Shown: positions 28,802 to 55,265 of the stretch, piece by piece
How the letters are laid out: each line of letters begins with the position of its first letter
How positions within the stretch are numbered: the first letter of the stretch is position 1
NCBI RefSeq assembly: GCF_041146345.1
Contig: NW_027191404.1
Location: 248,001 to 312,000, forward strand
Direction: 5' to 3'
DNA from: Neodothiora populina
Lineage: Eukaryota
DNA length: 64,000 nucleotides
Made by a program: the position numbers and the translations under genes
Notes under the pieces: generated by a model
Database searches by the model: none
The model's input: only the letters and a program-made list of their open reading frames with translations
Told to the model about the DNA's origin: nothing

Positions 28802-29354
28802 CGATACTCCAAGCGGATGTTCGAGTCGGCTCGATATTATGAGCGTGAGATCCCTCTAGTAAGTCACAAGAGTCTGTTTGTCGTTTCTTTATTCTTATGA
28901 TCATGTATTGCTTCACTGTCCTGGGTAGAGCCGTAATGTGTTTCCTAAGATGTTCAGGAAGATCATCGTGATTCCCAGTTGGATCCAACTTATGTATACA
29001 AGCACAAGGAGCAAAAGACTTTTATGGCTTCAACACGCTTTTGCTCTGGATATGTCTCACGGCGCCAGACGATTCGACGACATCCGGTGAGGCCCAAAGG
29101 CTTGTTGTAGTCTCACCGGACTCGAGGTGGACACATCTGCAGGCTTATTGCGAGGTCACTACAGCTTCTTGTGGGTGAAGGACAATCCCTACAACAAACC
29201 GCGGGCAAGATACACAAGTATATAATGATCTGTGTCGAGTCATTCATCATGGTGTTCGTATCATATATCATCGGCAAGTCCAAGTCTCCAATCGTACTCG
29301 GCAGGCATCAGAACATCACTATTACCACTTTATCACATCCAGCATATTCTGAAC

Positions 29355-30516
29355 ATGTCTCCTTCCGGCAATACCAGCAAATGCCACAACATGACAACAC
29401 GCTCCCCCGACAAACGCAAGGGCGTGTTTCCCAGCCGCCGCGAAACAGAAGACAACATGCCTGCACCCAAGAAGGCGCGCATCACTCTCCGCTTTAGCAA
29501 ACGCAAGTCTGCTGAGCTAAGCTCCCCTCCTCTCCCTGTTTCTTCTTCCTCTTCCTCTTCCGACCCCGCTCCTACTCCAGCTTCTGCCTCTGCCTCTGGG
29601 GCAGACAACAGCGAGCCAGTGCGCAAGAAGCAATGCACGAAACCAGGCCTGTCCGAAGAGACCCTCGAGGAAAGCCACAGCGTCGCAGCGAGCCTTACTC
29701 AGATGTCGAGAACTCTGACCGCCTACGACGCAGCGCAAGCCCACGCCATCAAAAGACATCCGCACGGCCTCCAGCCGCATCCAATCTCTGCGCTCAGCTG
29801 CTGCGACCAAGCAACCAGGAAGGCCCAGCCCGGAGAACGCCACTACGTCAGACCATCCCAGCAGGCCCTTCAACCTAGAGACAGACTCGCCCTACTCATG
29901 GTCTGCACCAGAGATCTCGCACGACACCTGGCCCGCGACCACAGGCGCCGCACGCGGAGGCAGCTACGTATGGGCAGACACGCAGACGACGCCCGAAGCC
30001 GGGGCATCCATCGCCACGCCCGCGCCACTCCCGAGTCATCTCGTCGGCTACCCTGGATATTGGACATGGAGCCTGACGCCGGCGCTGGGCTCGGTCTTCG
30101 CTCTGCCTGAAGCTAGTAGTTCGCCTCTGGGGCTGCAGAAGAAGGAGAAGGCGCCTAGAAATATCGATAATTGGGCGTTTCACCATAGGGATGTGGCTGC
30201 GGATGCGAAGGTCAGGGCGAGAGAGCAGAGGGAGTGGTTGCGCGAGGAGGCACAAGCCGGGCAGAGGAGAGCTGCTGACGAGGTGGAGCCTGCTGCACTT
30301 GCGTTGCTACATGCTGCTGGTGCTGGTGTTGCTCCTGGAAGCGGACGGTCAACGAGGAGGCGGATACGTGGCGAGGACAGGACGCCGCCGCAGAGTAAGG
30401 AAGAGGCAAAGGCGAAGGGGAAGCCGAAGCTGGTGGTGCATACTCAGCAGAGCGTTTTGGCTGGATTCTTGGGGCTTTCGGAGGCTGAGGTTAAGGAGCA
30501 GATGAGGGAGGTATGA
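29355..30516 (+). CDS. Hypothetical low-complexity, probably nuclear protein with an internal frameshift
   Basis: ATG 29355 frame has NLS-like PKKARI and RKKQ; the +1 frame is open from ~29720 to TGA 30516 and reads as protein. The junction is plausibly the A4 at 29751-29754. Confidence 0.5.
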
Positions 30517-39062: not shown

Positions 39063-40391
39063 TCAATCGGGACACATGGCTCTCTCGATGACTTTCATGG
39101 TGCGATTTGCCTTGACGAGTAGGAACCTTGCCATTTCGCCGTCGCCTTTGCCCGCATGGCTCCTCCGCGCGGCAATGGCAAGATAGTTCTTTCTTTCCTT
39201 TTCATCGCCGCCCATGGCCAATGCTATGCCGGCGTACTTTAGTAATATCACATTAAGGATGATCCTGCACATTCTGCCGTTGCCACTGAGGAAAGGATGG
39301 ATGTTGACAAAGTGCGCAGAGGCGCTGGCGGCAATGTAGAAGGGGTCGAGTTCTTGCATTTTCTCTGCTTGGCGAATAGTCCCATTGAAGAGTCTGATGA
39401 ATTTGCGCATCATTTTCTTGACTTTTTGGTGAGGTGGGAATTTGAATGTGTTTGCGTAAACGTCTTCTTTCCGGTAGATGCCTGCGAACGTGGAACTTTT
39501 GGTGTTTTCGTCATTGACGTACAATTTGTCAATGTCGCGACATAGTATTTTGTGCGTCGACTTGATCAGACCTTCCGATAGTTCCTGTCCTTCGCCGACA
39601 AACTTGTTGGCCATGTAGCAGAAAGCCGCCATGTGGTTCACCACTTCGCGCCGACGGCGATAACGGGACTCTTCTACTTCGCTGCGGACAATGTACTCGA
39701 GGTGAGATTTGTATTCGTCGCTTTTGGGTGAGATGCCGGAATATATCAATCGCTCGTTTGCAAGGACGGCCTGACACAAAGTCAAATTCTCCCGAAAATT
39801 ACAACCAGTCTTGTCGACCAGGTTCGAGCCATAGACTGCCATTGTCATGCCTCTGGCTATGAGGCCTTGCAATTTGGTTCCATATGCATTATCTCGAGTA
39901 TCATATAGGCGACTTCTGATCCGGCACAGGCACTGTACGGTATCTTCAAACACATTGCGTATGCTTTTTAGATGCGGTTCATTGTAGCCGGGAACATTAG
40001 GTTCAATTCTTAGATTGAAATGCAAAGGTTGTGGAGGTTCAATGCGATGGCCCACGACACAAAATCTACGACGATGGCGAAGTGTGTTCCATTGGGGCCA
40101 TTCGATTAATTCTGGTCGTCCCGGCTCCCGGGAGCGACTTCGTCTTCTGAGTTTCTTTTCCGACAGCGAGCTTGAAGTTTCTCGTTTCAGCCTTTTCTTT
40201 TCCTGTACCTGCACCTGTTTTGGCTGATCTTTGATTTCGATATTTTCTTTTGTTGGTGCAGCTGACGGTGGAGTGACTACGACGACATTTTCAACTGCGC
40301 CAGCAGGCTGCTGCTCCTGCTGCAGCTGGTCGGCCATCTTGGGATAGGTCGGAGTCTCACGTCGCGGGACTGACGCTGCAGCGGCCCCCAT
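39063..40391 (-). CDS. Fic/DOC (fido) domain protein
   Basis: HFVNIHPFLSGNGRMCRIILN matches the Fic motif HPFxxGNGRxxR; IKSTHKIL..AGIYR upstream elements; intronless; start at ATG 40391 or 40337. Confidence 0.88.
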   Translation of the reverse strand: MGAAAASVPRRETPTYPKMADQLQQEQQPAGAVENVVVVTPPSAAPTKENIEIKDQPKQVQVQEKKRLKRETSSSLSEKKLRRRSRSREPGRPELIEWPQWNTLRHRRRFCVVGHRIEPPQPLHFNLRIEPNVPGYNEPHLKSIRNVFEDTVQCLCRIRSRLYDTRDNAYGTKLQGLIARGMTMAVYGSNLVDKTGCNFRENLTLCQAVLANERLIYSGISPKSDEYKSHLEYIVRSEVEESRYRRRREVVNHMAAFCYMANKFVGEGQELSEGLIKSTHKILCRDIDKLYVNDENTKSSTFAGIYRKEDVYANTFKFPPHQKVKKMMRKFIRLFNGTIRQAEKMQELDPFYIAASASAHFVNIHPFLSGNGRMCRIILNVILLKYAGIALAMGGDEKERKNYLAIAARRSHAGKGDGEMARFLLVKANRTMKVIERAMCPD

Positions 40392-41731
40392 AAATACAAG
40401 CACAAGTAGGCGACAATCTTAAAGATCAACACCTCGCTTGATTCGTGTAGGAGGTAAGTGAATATGAATGAAGAGCAAGGAAATGAACGAAAGGCACGGA
40501 GTCTTTTCAGACCCGTGGTTTGTCACGACAAGACACGTCGGCATAGGTACGCATGACAAGGGGAGGGGGGATGGGTCAACCACACCGAACCACCCTATGA
40601 TGCATCCTCGCAGCAGGACGCATGCAGGCCCCCACGCTTATTACCTGCATAAGCCTCGCGCTTACTTTCTTTAACATCCCTACATGGCTTACAATAGCAA
40701 CTTATCCTGGGATCATTAGAAAGTGAGAATACGTCAGTCGGATCTTTGGCCGCGTATATTGGGCAAGAAAAAGACGGGACGCTTGGCGGTCCGAGAAAAG
40801 TTTGGCCAGCAAGTTGCGGGTATTATTCATGAGACGGATGAGATTGTAAGGTGCACCTTCGGCGTATCTTTGGGATCCTTGACATATTGTGTCGTGGGTA
40901 GGCTGCGAAAAGTATCTTACCTTACCTACGGCACGCGCGAGCCTTGTTGCGTATCCCAACTCCCGCACCATACAGAGGCAAGGGCCTCAAGTTGATGATT
41001 GGCTCGCGATCATCCTGCTACGGTTGGATCTACAATCTGACATTGCAGCAACATCCGCACTTCGCCGAACAGAGTTTTGTCCTAAATAGCAATTAGCATC
41101 CCTCGATGCCCTCCTCCCCTATCCCATCGCTCAAACTCTCCCCCGTTTTGCGGGGCCTTCCATACACGATCGTGGAGAGGCGGCGATGAAGCCAAGAATG
41201 GAAACATGAATGAGGTACGGATACGAGCGCCTAGGGCGTTGACCAAGTGAAAACGTCCGTTTCGGATTGCTCCCCGCGAAGGCGGCCACTACAACGGCTA
41301 CTTCGCGGTACCTTGCATCATTTTTCGCTTGTGAGTCCGCTCGGACACCGATGGATTGACACAAATCACTCCTTCACCAATTTCAGGTCGTATCGTGCTA
41401 ATCGCGCGTGTTCTTAGTTCTTATCTCTTCTTATCGATCAAATCCCCCGCTCTGTAAAGTGAAAAGCGGGGAGAGACGATATGCCGTTTCAATCCTTCCC
41501 AAGCCCAAGCCCATTCTTGAGACAGATACTGCACAGTTTACTGATAGGGCGTCTTGAGCGGCCGCCGGGCTGCTCAATGGGATAGATATGCTATGGGACT
41601 GCTATATAACCAAATTTATATGACCACTATCCCATGCGTATCTGCGATCAGTCCTACGTGTTTCACTTTGCACCGCCATTTGCCAACACACAAGCACATC
41701 ACTCTATAGTATCAGGGGACTAACCCGGAAC

Positions 41732-43129: not shown

Positions 43130-44467
43130 GGACAACGTTCGAATCATGTTCCCCGTCTCTTTTGAAAGTGTAACTCACTGAGAGTCAAGAACATAGGCGC
43201 GTCGTCTTCTCGGTGAAACGGAGAATTGTGAACCAATGACTTATGAGGTTGGGAAAAAGACAGGGTGCAACAGCGCGAACAGCCCAAGTAAACCACTGAA
43301 TCATGATACCTTGAGTGCGTTACACTATCTTGCTATATAGCACATAGCACCGAGAGCAGCTCTGTAAGGGTACAGACCCAAGTTATCATACGTACCGAGG
43401 TTCATCGCAGCGACTCGTCGCGTCGAAGGTTGCTCACATGACCATCTGTGTTAAGAGTCGAATGCGCGGAAGTCCGCCCTAGAAGATGCGCTACGGGTAG
43501 CTAGTCGTCGACTTCAAGCTAATTCGAGCGACCCTGGACTCGTGTCTGTTCTTGAAACGGGCAGCTGCAGATGACTGGCGACGTGCAATGCGAAACAATA
43601 TCCCACTCTAGTTGCGCAGATCCTGTACACAAGTTGCAATGATACCCTCCTCTACGACTCGCTGAACTAACAGAAGCATACGGACATGATGAGGCAGCTG
43701 ATGGTCTAATATACCACCGTATACAGAGACCGGAGCGATCGTCACGAGCTATTCACTAGCACGCACCGACACTGAGGCACAGTATAGCCTTGGGTTTAGC
43801 CGGCACCAGTCCGAATATTAGCTGTCTTGCCTTACTCCGCCCATACATTTTCGGACTGCTTATGGGGGAGATCCGATGCATTTTGGCACAGCATCTAGGT
43901 AAACCATGGTAAGGTATGGATAGGGCGTCGACTATGCCGACGTGTTAATTTCCTTTGATTCACACACGGCGGAGTTTTGTCGCCATCTGAAAATCTCCCT
44001 TTCTTTACAATCATTTATTTCCTTTCGTTTGAACAATAGTGACATAAGAATCCTTTTCCACGTGGTTCATTCCCGAATCGTTGTTGGAAAACGCTCATCG
44101 TCTGAACCGTCGAAGTTCTGAAACTTAATTTCCGGATCTATACCAATAGCATGGCCCCTGAGTGAGATCGAGGAGTGACTCTGATGCTGCTGAAAGCTGG
44201 TGCAGGATCCCACGACATCTTATGGTGGGCATCTCGCGTTGTGTATCGCTCCCAAGACCATTGTCGGGCCTCGATTCGGTGTCGTTAGTCTTCCTGCAGG
44301 CTGCCAACGTTGCTGCAGCCTGGCGGCCGACAACCTCCAGTCCGAAATCGCAGTCTGGTTGTGCAGCGGAAGCGTGTGAAGATACTCTCCAATTAGACAA
44401 CAAGTTTGACGTCGGCATCCCTGTCAGCTAAACCCTGCAAAACAGGGTCGGATCCACGCGAACTCCA

Positions 44468-44751
44468 ATGGCAGCGTTCTCGTCTGATTTCTACGACACA
44501 GCTGTCACTCACAGTCATGGCTACAGTTTCGTTTCGCCCTTGATGTCTCGCGCCGAGTCTGTCGTGAGCGACGGCCGGTCCTCAATAGTATCTAGCATGA
44601 CAGCCAATGCACCCACTTACCTGACAAATGTCCGACCTCTGCCTGAATACATATCGCCTGTCAATGCATCGCAGGTTGCGACCGAGTCTCAATACTCACG
44701 TAGGGGCTCAGTGTCTGGAGACGAGGATGAGGACGAGAATGGTGTTGACGA

Positions 44752-44784
<33 letters not shown>

Positions 44785-47700
44785 AAATGCACTCGACCGG
44801 AATCGAGAAGGTCGCGTCGCCGTCGCCGAGGGCGCCATCTTACTCGTGAACGCGTTCTTAGACAAGCTCCTCTATGATTTTCTGGCAACCGCTCGGTCCA
44901 CAAGCTTATTAGCCCTAAGACCAGCTGTTGCAGATATATTAAAGAAGAATCTAGCTCGAGATGCCATCTCCCGCGCCGAAGCAAACCTCCAAGACCTGCT
45001 TGCGCTGCAGGACAGCGACGACGACGACAACGACGAATATGCAGAGCGACCGCAAACGCCGAAAGAGTCGGCGAGATGGAACTTGGAGTTTATCTGGAAA
45101 CGGACACGACTGCGCGTCATGATGCGCAGCGACAAGAGCGAGTTTGATATTGATGATGATGAGCGATACGTTTCAGAAGAAGGCTTATTACTCGGACGCC
45201 GCTCGTCTCAGACGACTGTTATCTCCTTATCTGCTGAGATCTTCCTTGCTGGCGTGCTTGACTTTGTTGCTGAGCAGCTGCTGTCATTTGCGTCAACTAG
45301 TGCAGCTGTGCGCACGCGGCGACAAGGCTTCAATGCGGGAGTTGACCATGCTCGGCACGCAGGAGGACACATCCTGATAGGGGAGTCTGATGTAGAAAAG
45401 GCTGCATTGAACTCTTCTATGGAGCGTCTCTGGCGAGGCTGGCGCAGATCCACTAGATCTCGAGGCCTCAGCACCGGTCGCCGCTCCTCCAGAAGCTTCA
45501 CTGGTAGTCCAATCGCAACTCGTCGCACGAGTCTTGGTGGACCCCTTACTGAAGGTGTCGCCACGCCGAGTATCCCAGACATGAACCATCCTGAGCATGT
45601 CATCGCGGCAAACATCCCGATTCCAACCTCGTCGAGGGAAACTGCCGAGATAGAGACACCATGGCTTGCGCGAGACCCGGATGAAAAAGTACCGCAGGAC
45701 CACGTCACAAACAATCGCGTGAACCATCGCCCAGTCAAAAGTCTGAACAATTTCTCCTACTTCAGGCCTGTCAGACCTCTTTCGAGCCATGCAACACGCC
45801 CTTCAACCTCTCCTCAATTTCCCTTGGGGACCCCGTTCGTCGACGCGCCCGGCGCGTGGCCTGCAGAAACACCAGGCGAGGTGTCGACTGATGGAACCTT
45901 TCTTTCCGACACCCAGGCACGCGGGTCACCCATACCCACCGTGGACCCTTCTCAACTCGAACTGCCAGCTCCAGAATCCGAAATTACCCCAAGAATGGAC
46001 AACCACATTTGGCAGAGACATGACCGAGACGGCCCTTTGCCGGATGGCGACTCGACTTCTGCGTCCACCAATTGTGCTTCTAGGCCAGCCAATGGAGCGG
46101 CATGTCAAGAACCCAGCGAGTCGATAGCCACACGAAACAACGCCAGAGAAGTACGTCTTTCGGAGGAATTCAGACGCAAATCCATCGGCGACATGAAGTC
46201 ATTCATGCTGGGTCAGGACACAAAACAAGAATCGGAGAATGATGAGGAGGCTACCAACAGCACGTTCCCCGACAAGAACGGTCCACTAGCCACTGACCAT
46301 AATGAACAACGCCCCGAATCAAAAGCAAGCGCGCATACAGCTCACTCCTATACGCTCAATGACCGGTCCACGACTCTTGTGTCCCAGCACCGAGCGACAC
46401 CCCAGCACATGCCTAATCACGACTCTAGGTTTGACGAGGATGACGGACGAGAAGCCGCTCCTAGCCCAGTGGTGAGACCAGCTTCGCGTGATTTCTCTGG
46501 CCGCCCTATGTTCGAGGTCCCCTATGAAGATGCTATAACGCCGCGCAGAGTCGATCGTCCGCCGAATTTGACACTAGCGTCCAAATATAGTCCAGCCCGC
46601 AGCACAAAAGCGGGTTCGCAGGGATCAACCAGCCCCAGAGACTTTTTGGCAAGCAGAAACCTATCACCTCCGTCTTCTCCGTCTACATACTCCCCAAAAG
46701 AGCATTCCGCAAAGTCATCGGACCCGGTGCCGAGCCAAGCTCAAACTGGTGCTACCCCAGCTGAAACAGCGAGGGTTGCAGACGCTCCACAACCTGTCGC
46801 GAACGACTCCCCCCTCGCTGTGCAAGGCCTGGGAATCTCTCAGCAGACATCTGATGAATTAAAAAATCACAACAAAGCTTCCCCCCGACTGTATCAGTCC
46901 ATAACGGAGGAGTATGTCCATAATCGCGGAGCATCAAAGGTTCTCGACTCGGAAAGCTCAACCTCGAGTAGTAGGAGAAACAGTCTCAAGATTATCCCAG
47001 TGGAGAACAGAGGCGATATGGACGAGCCTAGCAAGTCTTCTATCAGTCTGACCAGGCTAACCAGCCCGACGATCACATCGCCTGAGGATTTCGACATGTT
47101 GGTGCAAAGTAATGATACCATCAAATATACTTTGACGCCCGAGACTGCTCGTGATGTACCAGTAAGTCAAGTCAAGTCAAGACAAGAGAAGTCAAGCCCA
47201 CATCAATACTGACAGCTGTCCAAAGGGCTCCGCTTTCACGCCTCAGGTGAAAATTGTTGCTCGTCCGCGAGGCAACGGGTCAAGGGAAAATATCAACTCA
47301 GCTGGATCAGGGAGAAAAAATGCACCGCCAGCGATTGATACGGATCTTGTAGGACCAAGACCTAGCCGTGGCGCCATGAAATCACCTTCCTCAGCATCGC
47401 TTCCGAAGGACAAGCAGAAGCAAATATTGAATGCACGAAAATCACCTGTCATTCGACCAGTTCCGAAGAACGCAAAGCCCACTGCCTATGGCCAGCTCGC
47501 CAGGGAACCTCAAGTGCAGACTTCGTCGACACGTGATTTTGCAGACTATATACGATCCACCGGCCCCGATAAAGAGCCTAACCCTTTCAACCCACTTCTT
47601 GCCTCCAGGAGCACGCAATCTTTACGTTCTCGAGCCAATTCCCAAGCGAACAGTGTGTCCGGTTCTGGCACAGGACAAACATTCAATGGCAACGAGAACG

Positions 47701-48956
47701 TGCCCCCTGTGCCTGCTATGCCGACATCTGCTGCAGCACATGCGAAGAGGAGCAATTCTATGAGTACTCCTAGTATGAAACACTCTCCCGTGACTCGCTA
47801 TGCCGGAACGCCGCGCGAAGGAAAAGGTTCTGTCAGCGGAAGTAATAACGCTGAGCTTATTGACTTCATACGGAATGGTCCACCAAATAAAGATGGAAAT
47901 CGCATACCCCGCAATATCGCGCCGTTTCATGACACCACTGATGATGATGAGGTGAATTATAACGGGCAGAGCTTTGACGTTAGATCTGGGCCCAACGAGT
48001 CTACCTTCTCTGCTTCTGTGCAAAGCAACTCAGCTTCGAACGGACACCCAAGTTTTCGCCCAAATACGGGCGCCTCAGCCAGCTACTCGAGCCAGCCCCC
48101 TTCTGCAAGAAGTTCCACAAACTCGCAAGCCAGGTTGTTACCTAGCGGAAGTGGTAGCACAGCTACAGTAACAGCTCACCAACCCGCGCATCCTACTCAG
48201 CCCGCTCATCTGAATATTCCTGGCGGCGGAGGACCCATCGGCATGGTCGAACGCAAGCGCCATCGTAACAAGGACCCATATCACATCGACGATTCAGAGG
48301 ATGAAGATTATCTCACAGCGTTGCCTCGAGACCGACGTCCTGAGGAAAGCTTGATGGACTTCTTACGCAACAGCGAGCCTCCCTCCGACAACGCGCCTAA
48401 ACCTCTTGCAGCCGCTGGACAGTCACAAGCACGGGCAATGCTAAATAAAGCTCGCGCCGATTCAGTAAACAGCCTTCGTGCAGCAACAGCGCCCTCTGAA
48501 ACGACGACGCCTCAACAGCCCAACCACAAGGGCAAAGCTTCAGTGACATCTACCATGTCTCCAGTATCTCCAATAAGCCCAATAGACGAAGCGGGGAGTG
48601 TTTCGCCATCCCTTGAGTCACGCATCTCCAACACGACGATGAGACCAGCTCAGATAACATCACAGATTTCGTCTGCTGGTAGCATACCACGCAACCCAAA
48701 TCGTGCGAAGATGCAGGTACGTGAAGCAGGAGATTCACGCAAAACCGCACGACTCGGTGCTCAGGAGAATGGACGATCCGAGACTAGTGATTTGGCGGAC
48801 TTCTTTCGAAACTACGAGCCTCCCCAGAGCTCTGGCCCCAAACCTATCATTAATAACAGTGCGCCGGCGCCCGTTGTCGGTATGACTGGACAAAGAACCG
48901 AAAAGAGAAAGGGCATAAAATTCTGGAAGAAGAAGACTTACTTGGATATGCCTTGA
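44468..48956 (+). CDS. Large (~1474 aa) mostly disordered fungal protein with an N-terminal histone-fold-like helical region and four DFxR-PP repeats
   Basis: Two long ORFs joined in frame by intron 47162-47225 (GTAAGT..CTGAC..AAG). Confidence 0.85.
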
Positions 48957-51103: not shown

Positions 51104-52826
51104 ATGTCAGGGAAGAGACCAATGTCACAGCATAGGCCATCGATCTCACAGGTACAGCAACCCAATATAGGCGCACCCTCACCACTAAGGATGCAACAAC
51201 TCCCGACCCCACCGAGTGCAGATCAGCGAATGCTTTCGAATAATACTGGAATCGCTATTGACAGACCAAATGAGGTTCAGACACCCTCCGGAACACAAAA
51301 TATCATGACGGCACCTACGCCCCCAGTCCCTGCTATGCCTACAGCAGACTCCTTACCTCCAAGACCTCCTGCGATCACACGTCTGTCTACCGACCAAGTG
51401 CCTTCATCGCCGTCACCTGTTCGGCGAATGGGCACGGGAGGAAATGAAATGACTTATTGGACCCCTCCAGCACCTCGTTATCAACCCTCGTACCAAGACA
51501 TGAATTACAGTGAGGCTCCTCATGCGATACCAACGACAGAGCATGTTTACGATGAACACTCGCAAATGATGTCAGGCGGCGTGCCTCAGAATCAGCCGTA
51601 TCAGCGGTGGCCAACTCATAAGCAGTCTTCCTCGATGCGCGGTCTTCGCTTTGACCCGAAGAGGAATTCATACCGTTTCGACGCGCTTTCGGACATCGAC
51701 AGCGTCAATGGGTCACCTTCGCGATCTGCTGTCCCACGTATGCGAGCACAAGGAGGAGGTGGAGGCGATTCGGTCCCACCAGATGAAATCCTGAGACTAC
51801 CTTTGACTTGGTGGATGAACTCGAGTGCGAAGAACCGTGAGTGCACATTGCTTGGCCCATGAGATCGGTGATATTATTGAAACAATGAGGGACGAAGGCT
51901 GACTTTACCGACTATGCGCATAGATTTCGTGGCCTTGCTTGGTGAATTCATTGGCACTACTATGTTTCTGTTCTTCGCCTTCGCTGGAACGCAAGTTGCT
52001 AACATTGATCAAAATGGATCTACTGCTACGAATAATGGATACAGTCCCATTGTACTTTTGTACATTTCTTCGGCTTTTGGTTTCTCACTAATGGTAAATG
52101 TTTGGATCTTCTTTCGAATCTCCGGAGGTATCTTTCATCTCATCCATCAATCGTGAAGTATTGTAATGTATGCTGACGTTATTGCCGCAAAGGTCTGTTC
52201 AATCCAGCAGTGACCCTAGGTATGTATCTGGTCCGCAGCATATCCATGTTCCGCGCGCTATTGCTCTTGATCGCACAGCTGTGTGGCTCCATGCTTGCAA
52301 CAGTATTACTACGCGCCCTGTTTCCGACCTCGCTCTCCGTGCGCACGACTCTCTCAGAAGACACCTCACTGGCGCGAGGCGTGTTTATCGAAGCAGTGCT
52401 TACTGCTGAACTTGTCTTTACAATCTTCATGCTAGCGAAGGAAAAACACAAGGCGACGTTCATGGCACCAATCGGAATAGGGTTCTCGTTATTCATCTCT
52501 GAGCTCGTCGGTGTCTACTACACTGGCGGATCCCTGAACCCAGCTCGGAGTTTTGGACCTTGCCTCGTCACTGGAGTTTGGGACAAAGAACATTGGATCT
52601 ACTGTGAGTTGTCTATGATATTTTCTACCAAAAGATACCGGCTGAGACTGACTTGCCGCACACAGGGTTGGGACCAGCAATGGGTGCTATATTGGCGGTT
52701 TGTTTCTACAAGCTGATCAAGATACTGGAGTACGAAGTGGCAAATCCTGGTCAAGATGCTAAGAACGAAGAGGAAACTACGCGTCCTGCTTTGCCTCGGC
52801 ACCGAAAGACGTCTTCTGAGGCCTGA
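51104..52826 (+). CDS. Aquaporin (MIP family, orthodox water-channel type), ~502 aa to the first stop
   Basis: HFVALLGEFIGT, GGLFNPAV, GGSLNPARSFGP, HWIYWLGP, YEVANPGQD; introns 51837-51923, 52128-52192 and 52604-52665; ~245-aa Pro-rich N-terminus. Confidence 0.95.
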
Positions 52827-53519
52827 CTAGCCGATAGTAATCGTGACAGCTTTATCAAGACCAGTCTGGAGAGGTGAGTGAGCTGCGCGACTTGACTCTT
52901 TGCATCGATTCAAAGACTCCCGAGGAGTTTTGTCGAAGCACTGGCAATAAAAGCATCAACTGATCGCAGACGTAACAGAGATTCAACATTCGAAGGCCAA
53001 GACGACCCCTCCTACGAATCGCTGAAAGCCACACAGCAACGACAACAACAACAATCCCAGGATTTACAAGCCCACCCGAACCTCACTGCCCAGAACCAGG
53101 CCCAGAACCGCAGATCCTGGACCCCGTCCATCCGCGACTACCAACCATCGCTGACTCATCTCCCTGTACGGAACCGCTCGACCTCGGCATCAATATCGCG
53201 GCCAACGGCAACTTCATGCCCTCCATACCGTCGCAGCCGCAATAGCGGCAGCACCGTGCAAACCCAGACCTGGAGCGCGACATGGAACACGATGAAACAA
53301 AGAATACTAGACAAAGCATGGGGCGCAGCCGAAGAAAAAGAAAAAGAGAAGGCGCGCCGCCGAGCTGCGGCAGCAATGAAGGAGAGGGCAAGTATTGAAG
53401 AAGAGGGTAGGAATGGTCCTCATGTCAATGCTCACATTTTGGAGGAAGGTGAGGGCTTTATTGGAAGTGGAGGTGGAGCAGAGGGGACCTCACGAAGGGC
53501 AGAGGACGGAGTGATATGA
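52824..53519 (+). CDS. Putative readthrough C-terminal extension of the aquaporin (two exons, intron 52874-52978)
   Basis: TGA-CTAG stop context, then a stop-free frame across a GTGAGT..CTGAT..CAG intron to TGA 53517-53519. Confidence 0.6.
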
Positions 53520-54539
53520 GTGAATGGACAGGAAAGTTGCCTGGGCACGGACATGATTGAGCATGAGATATTGCGAGAAAAACGAACGAAAAGAAAGACA
53601 AGAGTGATGATTGACTGACCACGTATGACTTCGCGACCGGCTGGACGTTGTCACGGTTTATGAAGGACAAGGGACCCAAATGAGCTTTGGATCACGAAAG
53701 TACGAACGCTGAGATGGGCTGGTACCATCTCATTGCATGTGTCTAGGACAGGAATGGATAGAGTGTCACGAGTGCACGCTGCTAGATCAGCGCCTCTGTT
53801 GGGACGTGATAAAAAGAAAAAGGAACATGGCGGGGCATGGATGGCATAAATTCGGTGATGTACAATATAAGATCTCAAGAGTTCAGGTAGTTAGGATGTT
53901 ATGTACGTATATATGTAGGCATGAATTTTCAAAATTGGATATACGAGGCTGCAGTACAGTAATTCGATAGTGCTACTATCGCTATCATTATGAGGCTTCG
54001 AATGAGGTACATCACTAACTTCGTCCGGAATGTCCCAGCTGTGGAGATATTCCCAGAGACTTCAACATGCCCACATCTCCTCATCGCTGGATCAGGTCAT
54101 CCACAAGTCAATCTGTGCTGTTGCAGTCAGATTTGCTCTTCGGTCTGTTGTAGCCCATGTCTAGTAACACTGGCGTACATAATAAGGACTGTGAGGTTCT
54201 ACTATAACATAAATGAGGATGGTATGGTATAGACGTATGAAGAAAGTGGAGTTCATGAGGCATCTGTAACGCTATGAACGACTATGCAGGAATGACTCAA
54301 CTCGAGGAGGAGCGATGGTATGACTCTTACTGTGCAAGATAAGGGAGGAAGAGAGAGCAACATCCACGACAGCCTCACCTCTGACTGAACAAAGATTGAA
54401 CAAAGATCAAACGAAAATAAATACCCACCTCCATCATAGACAGCACGACTCGTCCCCTTCAACCTCCCATTTCCCATTCTCCATCTCCCAAGAAAAAACA
54501 AAAACCCCTCCCCTGAACAGTACCAGAAAAACACAGGCA

Positions 54540-55265
54540 AAGAAAAAAAAGACCACGCCCTTCCACCTCCCCACCCCGCGCCTGTACATAAGCCACCTCG
54601 ACGCCAATAACGCGTCACACTGCACCTTCCTAGTAACGCTCTACAACACGCCGCAGTTCATCGCCTCAACAGGCGGAAAGCCCACCTCCATCACGACCCC
54701 AGAAGCAGCACACGACCTGCTCGCAGGGCGCTTCCGCGCCGAACACGCCAGGAACGGGTACGGGACATATCTCATCAGCCTCAAGACGCCTCGCGCAGCA
54801 GAGACGCAGAGCGGCGAAGAAGACGGGGATAGAGAGGGATTGTTAGCACGCAGCACGCCGATAGGTACAGTCTCGCTCATGCGCGGCGAGGCGCCGAATG
54901 CGTACTCTGTGCCTGATTTGGGGTTTGCGATCTTGCCGCAGTATACGCGGAAGGGATTCGCTAAGGAGGCGTGTGTGCACTTGCTTGCGTATGCGCGAGA
55001 GGAGCTGGGTGTGGGCGCTGTGCTGGGGCTGTTTGATCCCGCGAGTGAGGCGTCCAGGGGCGTGTTTCGGAGCTTGGGGTTTGAGGATCGAGGGGTTAGG
55101 GAGTTGAGGGTCTTTGGGGGCGTGATGGGGGGGGGGGGGGGAGGGGGGTTTGGGTTAGTCCCGGGGCGGGGGAGTTGGAGGGGTCTGGGTTTTGAGGGGG
55201 GTTGGGTTGGATTGTGGGAAGGGAGGTCCGAGGGAAGGGGAGGATTGATTTGTAGGTGTCAGTAG
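54540..55265 (+). CDS. GNAT N-acetyltransferase (RimJ/RimL-like); both termini uncertain
   Basis: FHLPTPRLYISHL, IGTVSL, PDLGFAILPQYTRKGFAKEA, ASRGVFRSLGF; no in-frame ATG visible upstream; G-run at ~55127-55141 disturbs the C-terminus. Confidence 0.8.
   Translation, partial: KKKKTTPFHLPTPRLYISHLDANNASHCTFLVTLYNTPQFIASTGGKPTSITTPEAAHDLLAGRFRAEHARNGYGTYLISLKTPRAAETQSGEEDGDREGLLARSTPIGTVSLMRGEAPNAYSVPDLGFAILPQYTRKGFAKEACVHLLAYAREELGVGAVLGLFDPASEASRGVFRSLGFEDRGVRELRVFGGVMGGGGGGGFGLVPGRGSWRGLGFEGGWVGLWEGRSEGRGGLICRCQ

Follow-up and report, generated by a model that had tools for sequence, protein, structure and literature searches.

The closest described system is mammalian AQP4, an aquaporin whose UGA stop codon lies directly before CUAG (PMC4132726) and whose readthrough isoform, AQP4ex, carries an extension of 29 amino acids (PMC6444679). 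This extension is contiguous and is conserved, along with the motif, across vertebrates (PMC4132726). Among human genes, 23 stops read UGA-CUAG, conserved extensions being reported for only 4 of them (PMC4132726). The UGA-CU(A)(G) stop context is described as leaky in Ustilago maydis as well as in human cells (PMC4207609), and the background invoked in the initial annotation of this locus, namely that UGA-CUA(G) is leaky in fungi and animals and that AQP4 has the same motif, therefore holds (PMC4207609, PMC4132726, PMC6444679). The fungal candidate considered here resembles AQP4ex in being an aquaporin with a UGA stop directly before CUAG and in that the proposed extension would form a cytosolic C-terminal tail. 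It differs in the length of this tail (196 codons), in the need for an intron to be removed, in the lack of any relative of the extension in our searches and in the motif being found in 0 of the 62 related loci with a callable stop. A link to AQP4ex, if any, would be one of convergence, not homology.

Other systems share single features with the locus. PTS1 is an SKL-like C-terminal tripeptide, and the PTS1 readthrough extensions of Stiebler et al. 2014 are reportedly short. Some Drosophila readthrough extensions span introns. The PTS1 cases of fungi and animals have the same short stop context, leaky in Ustilago maydis, and their known extensions end in a PTS1 signal (PMC4207609); here, by contrast, the protein is a membrane channel, not a metabolic enzyme, and no PTS1 was found at either candidate tail end (...SLER with the intron kept, ...EDGVI with the intron removed). 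The long Drosophila extensions, e.g. that of kelch, are similar in that readthrough of a stop opens a long second ORF (PMC3840789; bioRxiv 10.1101/2020.06.22.165522), but they were, according to the abstract, predicted phylogenetically from related genomes, whereas the fungal case is known from its own sequence. Finally, Sordariomycete proteins can gain disordered, lineage-specific tails past the annotated stop through A-to-I stop-loss editing, but this process concerns mainly UAG, occurs in sexual stages and gives tails of 11–27 aa in the three examples described (PMC13123824), whereas the stop here is UGA. As judged from titles and abstracts, our literature search found nothing on readthrough of a fungal aquaporin.

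The window, i.e. the whole stretch of 64,000 nucleotides analysed, contains a MIP/aquaporin gene of four exons, whose spliced coding sequence of 1509 nt specifies 502 amino acids and has no internal stop:

51104..51836, + strand: aquaporin exon 1; ORF with its ATG at 51104, 244 whole codons, ending in ...ILRLPLTWWMNSSAKN
51924..52127, + strand: aquaporin exon 2, start of the MIP domain (Pfam PF00230 MIP, E 6.5e-06, 26.5 bits)
52193..52603, + strand: aquaporin exon 3, MIP core, containing both NPA motifs (PF00230, E 2.3e-35, 122.8 bits)
52666..52826, + strand: aquaporin exon 4, ending in ...LPRHRKTSSEA, then TGA

Exons 2 and 3 both score above the PF00230 gathering cut-off of 25 bits, exon 3 is 75–81% identical to Dothideomycete aquaporin-like proteins, and the spliced product has two NPA motifs. 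Exon 1, a long N-terminal region, matched no family in a Pfam search; it shows 36% identity across 93% of its length to a protein of Dothideomycetes sp. NU459 (P0004, MBLNU459_g6325t1), which is an orthologue, as is P0005 (labelled Penicillium taxi). Intron 1 starts with the donor GTGAGT at 51837, and the intron that follows exon 2 (52128-52192) reads GTATCT..AAG. As the C-terminal motif KILEYEVANPGQD is common to the product and to fungal aquaporin-like orthologues, the gene is, to judge by sequence similarity, a fungal (Dothideomycete-like) MIP/aquaporin orthologous to these proteins.

The orthologues also indicate where the protein ends. In an alignment with eight of them, the C-termini coincide within one or two residues and are of the acidic ...EEA type (...RKKDEEA*, ...RKMEEEGM*, ...GKEEAL*). 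Of 123 proteins compared, 82 have the NPGQD motif, and the tail that follows it is 8–108 aa long in these 82 and 27 aa long in the window's protein. The stop thus sits at the C-terminal position that is ancestral for these orthologues.

The region beyond the stop is laid out as follows:

52824..52830, + strand: stop TGA followed by CTAG, a leaky-termination context, read directly from the sequence
52827..52873, + strand: post-stop open stretch, LADSNRDSFIKTSLE plus 2 bases, translated with the TGA as X
52874..52978, + strand: candidate intron of 105 nt (GTGAGT 52874-79, CTGAT 52960-64, CAG 52976-78)
52946..52951, + strand: AATAAA, a possible poly(A) signal, 120 nt 3' of the stop and inside the intron-like segment
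52979..53519, + strand: downstream open frame in the aquaporin frame, 179 sense codons from 52980 and TGA at 53517-19, 13.6% T

The letters at the stop (GCC 52821-23, TGA 52824-26, CTA 52827-29, G 52830) are those reported in the initial annotation, GCC-TGA-CTA-G at 52821-52830. TGACTAG is found 4 times in the window, where 7.4 copies would be expected, so the motif by itself is at chance frequency; the chance of CTAG directly after a TGA is about 1 in 256. A search for RNA structure 3' of the stop (52824-52923) showed nothing unusual (z = -0.14).

The TGA might not be a true stop, owing to an assembly error, a strain-specific nonsense mutation, A-to-I stop-loss editing (UGA to UGG) or selenocysteine incorporation. 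Stop-loss editing that adds disordered tails is described as common in Sordariomycetes, but fungal editing is UAG-biased and documented in that class (PMC13123824), whereas here the codon is UGA and Dothideomycetes are the closest relatives. Moreover, the orthologues stop at the same place, and selenocysteine cannot explain readthrough in the fungus studied in PMC4207609, according to that report. We therefore regard a TGA of this kind as highly improbable.

Past 52826 the frame meets just three more stops, TGA 52875, TGA 52893 and TGA 53517, and the first two both sit within the intron-like segment 52874-52978. Excision of this segment preserves the frame (AG|A) and gives access to 179 more sense codons (DSTFEG...EDGVI), so that readthrough together with removal of the candidate intron would yield a predicted product of 698 aa with an extension of 196 codons. 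The intron signals, the AG|A junction and the run of about 180 stop-free codons put forward in the initial annotation were thus all recovered, as were its two isoform lengths of about 502 and 698 aa, which the gene model gives as sequence-predicted sizes. An alternative acceptor, CAG 52967-69, is also in frame and would lead to 701 aa.

These elements, all present and mutually consistent, make up the case for programmed UGA-CUAG readthrough combined with excision of an intron (105 nt) located 48 nt past the stop, giving a minor 698-aa isoform, which we nevertheless consider rather unlikely. The donor of the segment, GTGAGT, is identical to those of introns 1 and 3, in favor of such an isoform; the acceptor is CAG, the branch-like sequence is CTGAT vs CTGAC in the gene's other three introns, and the length is 105 nt vs 62–87 nt in those introns. 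The analogy with U. maydis and human cells, in which the context is leaky, also speaks for it. On the other hand, the GTRAGT..CTRAY..YAG pattern is weakly enriched in the window (12 by script count vs 8.3 expected per 128 kb of strand), so that the intron pattern alone is weak evidence, no stimulating RNA structure was found around the stop, and an AATAAA lies within the proposed intron (AATAAA has 27 matches in the window vs 18.5 expected).

The downstream frame could also be an alternative last exon, a splice donor 5' of the TGA (candidates GA|GTACGA 52730 and GAC|GTCTTC 52811) being used to skip the stop. Within exon 4, three GT sites would join in frame to the acceptors at 52970 and 52979, and fungi are said, in a title cited within PMC4207609, to add C-terminal signals by alternative splicing as well as readthrough. 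However, the candidate donors are weak, use of the 52730 donor would remove the highly conserved YEVANPGQD motif, and every orthologue protein seen ends at the canonical place; we judge this arrangement very unlikely.

The composition of the downstream frame sets it apart. Of 4232 segments of 537 nt taken from the window, only 0.17% have a T content as low as 13.6%, which makes the frame the most T-poor such segment, or nearly so, and none of 26 related 3' flanks has less than 18.6% T. Since its T content is thus far below that of the related flanks and of nearly all of the window, the downstream frame is unlike an ordinary 3' flank. This difference supports the 698-aa isoform, as does the location of two of the four other T-poor places of the window within long sense ORFs, of which one has an EF-hand match. 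At the local composition, an open frame of 179 codons has a probability of 0.4% per frame. Open frames of this kind can be found at related loci: a + strand frame of at least 186 codons starts within 300 nt of the stop in 4 of 26, two of which overlap long antisense frames that are gene-like by eye, while the other two have no such explanation. Moreover, about 105 codons stay open, without an ATG, in a T-poor and CA-rich stretch upstream of a neighbouring GNAT domain; open stretches beside genes therefore do occur in this genome. We rejected the idea that the frame is kept open by an antisense gene, since the minus-strand frames score from -0.17 to -0.31.

Codon usage gave an equivocal intrinsic coding signal for the extension. 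Its codon z is 1.5; the median over 25 coding pieces is 3.6, and four non-coding controls range from -2.4 to -0.2. The z is close to that of exon 1 (1.79), itself without a Pfam match, and in this respect argues for the 698-aa isoform; the codon score of the extension is attained by only 3.5% of simulated open frames of the same composition. By contrast, when the extension was scored in 40-codon windows, frame 0 was the best in only 4 of 7, vs 84% of 282 true coding windows, and the three successive windows covering 53040-53280 had a negative frame-0 score, with another frame better. In true coding windows with less than 14% T (n = 23), frame 0 is positive in 91%. The middle third of the extension is thus non-coding-like in its codon usage, which counts against the isoform. 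The first half can also be read in frame 2, where an 89-codon ORF (52976-53245) scores positively, but no workable splice path to it was seen by eye and it was treated as noise.

The positive frame-0 codon score is limited to about 53220-53519, a region that overlaps two further features:

53271..53411, + strand: predicted single long helix, extension residues 98-144 (AlphaFold2, single sequence)
53292..53519, + strand: longest ATG-started part, a possible separate small ORF of 75 codons behind a CA-rich leader

This restriction is what would be seen if a separate small gene or transcript consisted of a CA-rich leader (about 52980-53290) followed by the 75-codon ORF from ATG 53292, a layout like that of the T-poor, CA-rich stretch upstream of the GNAT domain. 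We hold the existence of such a gene to be improbable. Its product would be a helical small protein rich in Glu, Lys, Ala and Arg, and the frame shared with the aquaporin accidental, a picture that we find equally doubtful. The predicted helix spans residues 98-144, in agreement with it, but begins ahead of ATG 53292; an out-of-frame ATG lies at 53281, 11 nt upstream of the proposed start; and a purine-rich non-coding frame just beyond the frame's own stop (53508-53627, with 3 stops) scores 0.24, as high as the last 80 codons, whose score is positive. Nor did the ORF have a relative or a Pfam family in our searches. A conserved small downstream gene had also been suggested by an IATP domain in P0095, a 696-aa Curvularia aquaporin model; the domain is N-terminal and the idea was dropped.

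The extension itself was without a relative wherever we searched. Against 1.84 billion representative proteins it gave three matches, all of them multi-stretch matches to long repetitive proteins, and no relative was found among longer proteins or metagenome contigs. The initial annotation had looked to a tblastn comparison with related DNA for signs of conservation; no extension-like sequence was present in 80 distant loci, where tblastn and blastn at E <= 1 returned nothing except one 17-base blastn match, the best tblastn match having an E of 2.6. The extension, searched against Pfam whole and in two parts, matched no family at E up to 0.1 and 10. In the ESM Atlas, its best score was 0.78 and its recognition 1255, which is uninformative and low, given that a value of 2300 is reached by 91 of every 100 proteins from known families. 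These results all count against a 698-aa isoform. The AlphaFold2 model has a mean pLDDT of 60.1, with 85–93 at residues 101-130 and mostly low confidence elsewhere, and the long helix that it predicts would be in keeping with a real protein segment. We can thus picture the tail of a readthrough isoform as young, lineage-specific and mostly disordered, 196 residues long and cytosolic, with one long helix and a role in localisation, gating or stability, as in AQP4ex; this picture, too, seems to us on the unlikely side.

That a long tail would be tolerated in the aquaporin family is suggested by a sister clade of fungal aquaporins with in-frame C-tails of comparable length. These are found at eight metagenome loci (L044, L048, L051, L053, L057, L063, L072 and L076), which belong to the same MIP subfamily and have the KILEYExANPGQD motif. 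The resemblance, which is a point in favor of the 698-aa isoform, stops at length: the tails of these loci are not preceded by a stop or an intron, have conserved ends (...RTPSSFA or ...TSSGV) and show no similarity to the window's extension.

The stop context is likewise without a counterpart. Orthologues that lack the motif, which the initial annotation had named as speaking against readthrough, are what we found among the distant ones examined: TGA-CTA occurs in 0 of the 62 related metagenome loci with a callable stop, and in 10 of these 62 a second stop directly follows the first, both observations standing against programmed readthrough. The available orthologues are distant, with at most 59% identity over the 52 residues of the last exon; the comparison therefore excludes an old, family-wide feature and allows a lineage-specific one.

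The conjunction of features at a single stop also speaks for the 698-aa isoform. A strict intron donor within the short post-stop open stretch has a chance of about 0.3–0.5%, and multiplying the separate figures for the motif, the frame and the intron puts the three together at some 1e-8 to 1e-6 per gene, which is improbable. In addition, the candidate intron takes out exactly the only two in-frame stops while keeping the frame, which counts against a coincidence. Such a conjunction is not impossible by chance in a very large scan.

Our analysis establishes how the gene is built, its stop motif and the open frame, as well as the missing relatives and the conserved stop position; the tail as a made or conserved product is conjectural. 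For this reason, the explanation that we favor, with roughly even confidence, is that of an ordinary gene followed by an open frame that is coincidental or non-functional. In its support are the ancestral stop, the motif's absence from all 62 loci, the lack of relatives, the codon usage in the middle of the frame, the AATAAA and the absence of RNA structure; weighing against it are the joint improbability of the features, the T-poverty and a codon score above that of non-coding controls.

If the gene is an ordinary one, its main product would be the protein of 502 aa, with ...RKTSSEA as its ancestral C-terminal end, and the TGA-CTAG context would be a chance occurrence of a heptamer no commoner than expected in the window. 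Given its leakiness in a fungus and in human cells, a small fraction of ribosomes would, by analogy, probably read through the stop at a low level. The resulting product would be an unselected by-product, presumably devoid of function. With the candidate intron retained, or with an mRNA ending near the AATAAA, it would carry a 17-residue tail ending at TGA 52875; were the intron spliced by happenstance, it would carry the long tail. The 179-codon frame itself would best be explained as T-poor, first CA- then AG-rich non-coding DNA, belonging to a 3' UTR, to intergenic DNA or to the leader of another transcript, and its openness would reflect the scarcity of T rather than the maintenance of a protein.

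The case shows that a known leaky motif and an open frame are insufficient, and that T-poor non-coding DNA readily stays open. If the long isoform does exist, it would, as far as the literature searched shows, be without precedent in fungi as a long readthrough extension that spans an intron; it would represent a striking convergence with AQP4ex and would offer a live example of a protein tail, or a new C-terminal domain, being born past a leaky stop.

The aquaporin gene, as read from the sequence, has four exons on the forward strand:

Aquaporin gene features
51104-51836, forward strand: exon 1 (spliced gene model)
87 nt, forward strand: intron 1, GTGAGT..TAG
51924-52127, forward strand: exon 2, Pfam MIP PF00230 (E 6.5e-06)
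65 nt, forward strand: intron 2, GTATCT..AAG
52193-52603, forward strand: exon 3, Pfam MIP PF00230 (E 2.3e-35)
62 nt, forward strand: intron 3, GTGAGT..CAG
52666-52826, forward strand: exon 4 (spliced gene model)

The spliced coding sequence (1509 nt) encodes 502 aa with two NPA motifs and no internal stop. Its core shares 75-81% identity with aquaporin-like proteins, which come almost entirely from Dothideomycetes (among them Aureobasidium, Venturia, Pleosporales and rock-inhabiting Capnodiales). The top match (81%) is a protein labelled Penicillium taxi (P0005), which may reflect a mislabelled or contaminated assembly, or gene transfer; the other top matches are nearly all from Dothideomycetes. 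The N-terminal region (51104-51836, forward strand; 244 residues) has no Pfam match and, with 36% identity, a single relative, the aquaporin P0004 from Dothideomycetes sp. NU459, which indicates that the collections searched hold no close sequenced relative of the organism. P0004 shares the end of this region (...EILRLPLTWWMNS.AKN) almost unchanged, against only 36% identity for the remainder, which suggests a short conserved motif immediately before the first membrane helix.

The gene ends in GCC TGA CTA G (52821-52830), as the initial annotation had stated. In an alignment with eight orthologues, the ending ...HRKTSSEA* is level with ...RKKDEEA* in the Aureobasidium group, ...SRKMEEEGM* in NU459 and ...PGKEEAL* in P0005. 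The tail after the conserved NPGQD motif is 27 aa long; 82 of 123 collected proteins contain the motif, and in these the tail spans 8-108 aa, mostly 25-33. The stop is real and old: its position in this alignment and the typical tail length make a fault in the assembly or a nonsense mutation of recent origin unlikely and mark the 502-aa protein as ancestral. As for editing of the stop, A-to-I stop-loss editing is described as documented for Sordariomycetes and as UAG-biased (PMC13123824); that this TGA is an error or is edited is highly improbable.

The initial annotation took UGA-CUA(G) to be a leaky context that gives AQP4 an extended isoform, and the literature supports both points. UGA followed by CU is reported to suffice for efficient readthrough in Ustilago maydis, in HeLa cells an A at +3 raises it further, a G at +4 is noted in many of the genes identified by the authors, and selenocysteine incorporation is said to be unable to explain readthrough in the fungus studied (PMC4207609). 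UGA-CUAG is reported in four mammalian genes, including AQP4 (PMC4132726), whose readthrough isoform AQP4ex carries a 29-aa extension (PMC6444679). Only 4 of 23 human UGA-CUAG stops are followed by a conserved coding signature (PMC4132726), so that the motif alone is a weak predictor. TGACTAG occurs four times in the window (7.4 expected).

Beyond the stop the aquaporin frame reads LADSNRDSFIKTSLE. The only in-frame stops past 52826 are TGA 52875, TGA 52893 and TGA 53517, and the first two lie within a 105-nt intron-like segment with GTGAGT from 52874, CTGAT at 52960-52964 and CAG at 52976-52978. With this segment taken out the frame is preserved and the product is 698 aa long; use of a second acceptor, at 52969, also preserves it (701 aa). 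The proposed frame, intron signals and frame-preserving removal were thus correct in every detail, and the sequence features of the readthrough arrangement are real. An alternative last exon reached by splicing is quite improbable. The intron-like segment also holds an AATAAA (52946-52951, 120 nt past the stop) which, if used, would end transcripts ahead of the extension. RNA structure past the stop is not unusual (z = -0.14). Neither candidate tail end (...SLER or ...EDGVI) has the form of a peroxisomal signal.

How readily could such an arrangement arise by chance? With the local base composition (13.6% T) taken into account, the probability that 179 codons stay open is 0.4% per frame. There are 12 occurrences of the strict intron pattern GTRAGT..CTRAY..YAG in the window, where simulated sequence predicts 8.3, so that a match is not strong intron evidence; the chance of one starting in the ~50 nt open after the stop is a few in a thousand. 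Combined with CTAG (~1/256), open frame and intron pattern give 1e-8 to 1e-6 per gene, depending on the strictness of definitions, which is small, yet the scan was very large and many variants would have been acceptable to the earlier reader. Among 26 related loci (de-duplicated, with at least 1 kb downstream), four have a forward-strand frame of at least 186 codons whose start is no more than 300 nt from the stop. Long antisense frames, gene-like by eye, overlap two of these; the other two are not explained in this way.

Conservation of the motif and of the extension in relatives had been proposed as a check, and neither was found in the sequences searched. Scanning metagenome contigs with the last exon yielded 80 related fungal loci with flanks, many of them near-duplicates. 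TGA-CTA is present in none of the 62 with a callable stop, and 10 of these have a tandem stop directly after the first; even the nearest locus shares no more than 59% identity in the last exon (52 residues). When the 80 distant loci were searched with the extension (tblastn) and with 52827-54300 (blastn), no match had an E-value under 2.6, except for one of 17 bases in the blastn search. No relative of the extension was found among 1.84 billion representative proteins (the three hits are multi-stretch matches to long repetitive proteins), the longer proteins of a word-indexed collection, the metagenome contigs or the Pfam families. With an ESM Atlas recognition of 1255, the extension falls far short of 2300, a value reached by 91 in 100 known-family proteins. 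These comparisons exclude an old, family-wide extension and are compatible with a lineage-specific one.

Long tails occur elsewhere in the family: a sister clade of fungal aquaporins (metagenome loci L044, L048, L051, L053, L057, L063, L072 and L076) has C-terminal tails directly in frame, downstream of a KILEYETANPGQD motif, that end in a conserved ...RTPSSFA or ...TSSGV and are unrelated to the extension. The Curvularia clavata aquaporin model P0095 (696 aa) carries IATP (PF04568) at residues 1-91, ahead of MIP at 353-577, and looks like two adjacent genes merged by the gene caller.

Coding character was assessed with a codon log-odds model trained on the window's own confident ORFs, 12-16 in number (seven with Pfam domains, four being the aquaporin exons, the others very long); the model is weak, for it gives a score close to zero to a piece of the neighbouring GNAT domain as well. 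The whole extension scores 0.124, the best of six frames and within the coding range (0.03-0.26), with z = 1.5 relative to simulations that share its first-order composition. Coding pieces of equal length have a median z of 3.6 (n=25; two at or below 1.6), aquaporin exon 1 has 1.79 and four non-coding controls range from -2.4 to -0.2; 3.5% of simulated frames that happen to be open reach the observed score. The signal is uneven: frame 0 scores negatively in the windows that start at 53040, 53100 and 53160, where another frame does better, and it is best in four of seven windows, versus 84% of 282 coding windows. Of 23 true coding windows that are similarly T-poor (<14% T), 91% have a positive frame-0 score. 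Just past the stop, a purine-rich frame interrupted by three stops scores 0.24, matching the positive score seen over the last 80 codons. The coding character is thus equivocal, and the middle part leans non-coding. Single-sequence AlphaFold2 (mean pLDDT 60) predicts one confident helix, at residues 98-144, in agreement with the helical stretch of the initial annotation; because the stretch is so rich in Ala, Glu, Lys and Arg, this would be weak evidence of a real protein.

The extension is among the most T-poor stretches of the window (a T content as low as 13.6% is found in only 0.17% of 4232 windows, each 537 nt long), and the 26 related 3' flanks all have at least 18.6%, so that it is not a usual 3' flank. 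This composition cuts both ways. Four other places in the window have at most 15% T: two lie inside same-strand long ORFs, one with an EF-hand match; the third is a CA-rich stretch upstream of a GNAT domain, open for ~105 codons without an ATG, which may well be a leader; the fourth has two overlapping frames. A separate small ORF or transcript downstream of the aquaporin is improbable.

Further ORFs were noted in the window. In the GNAT acetyltransferase ORF (54324-55265, forward strand), which the CA-rich stretch precedes, the Pfam domain covers residues 105-254 and no in-frame ATG lies ahead of it. At 29229-30516 (forward strand), a very T-poor stretch holds long ORFs of 293 and 265 codons that overlap; the better codon score switches frame near 29700, perhaps owing to an intron, frameshift or sequence error within a gene that lacks a Pfam match. 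Two adjoining very long ORFs at 44432-48956 (forward strand; 926 and 596 codons), with no Pfam family at E <= 0.001, are probably one large gene without known domain. A 450-codon ORF at 39063-40415 (reverse strand) has a Fic/DOC domain (E 2.9e-15).

A lineage-specific true readthrough isoform, a predicted functional protein of 698 aa, would be consistent with the leaky context and the open frame, and is rather unlikely given the sequence comparisons and the uneven codon signal. There is about an even chance that this is an ordinary aquaporin gene with a leaky context arisen by chance and a non-functional open stretch downstream, in which case some unselected readthrough would be likely.
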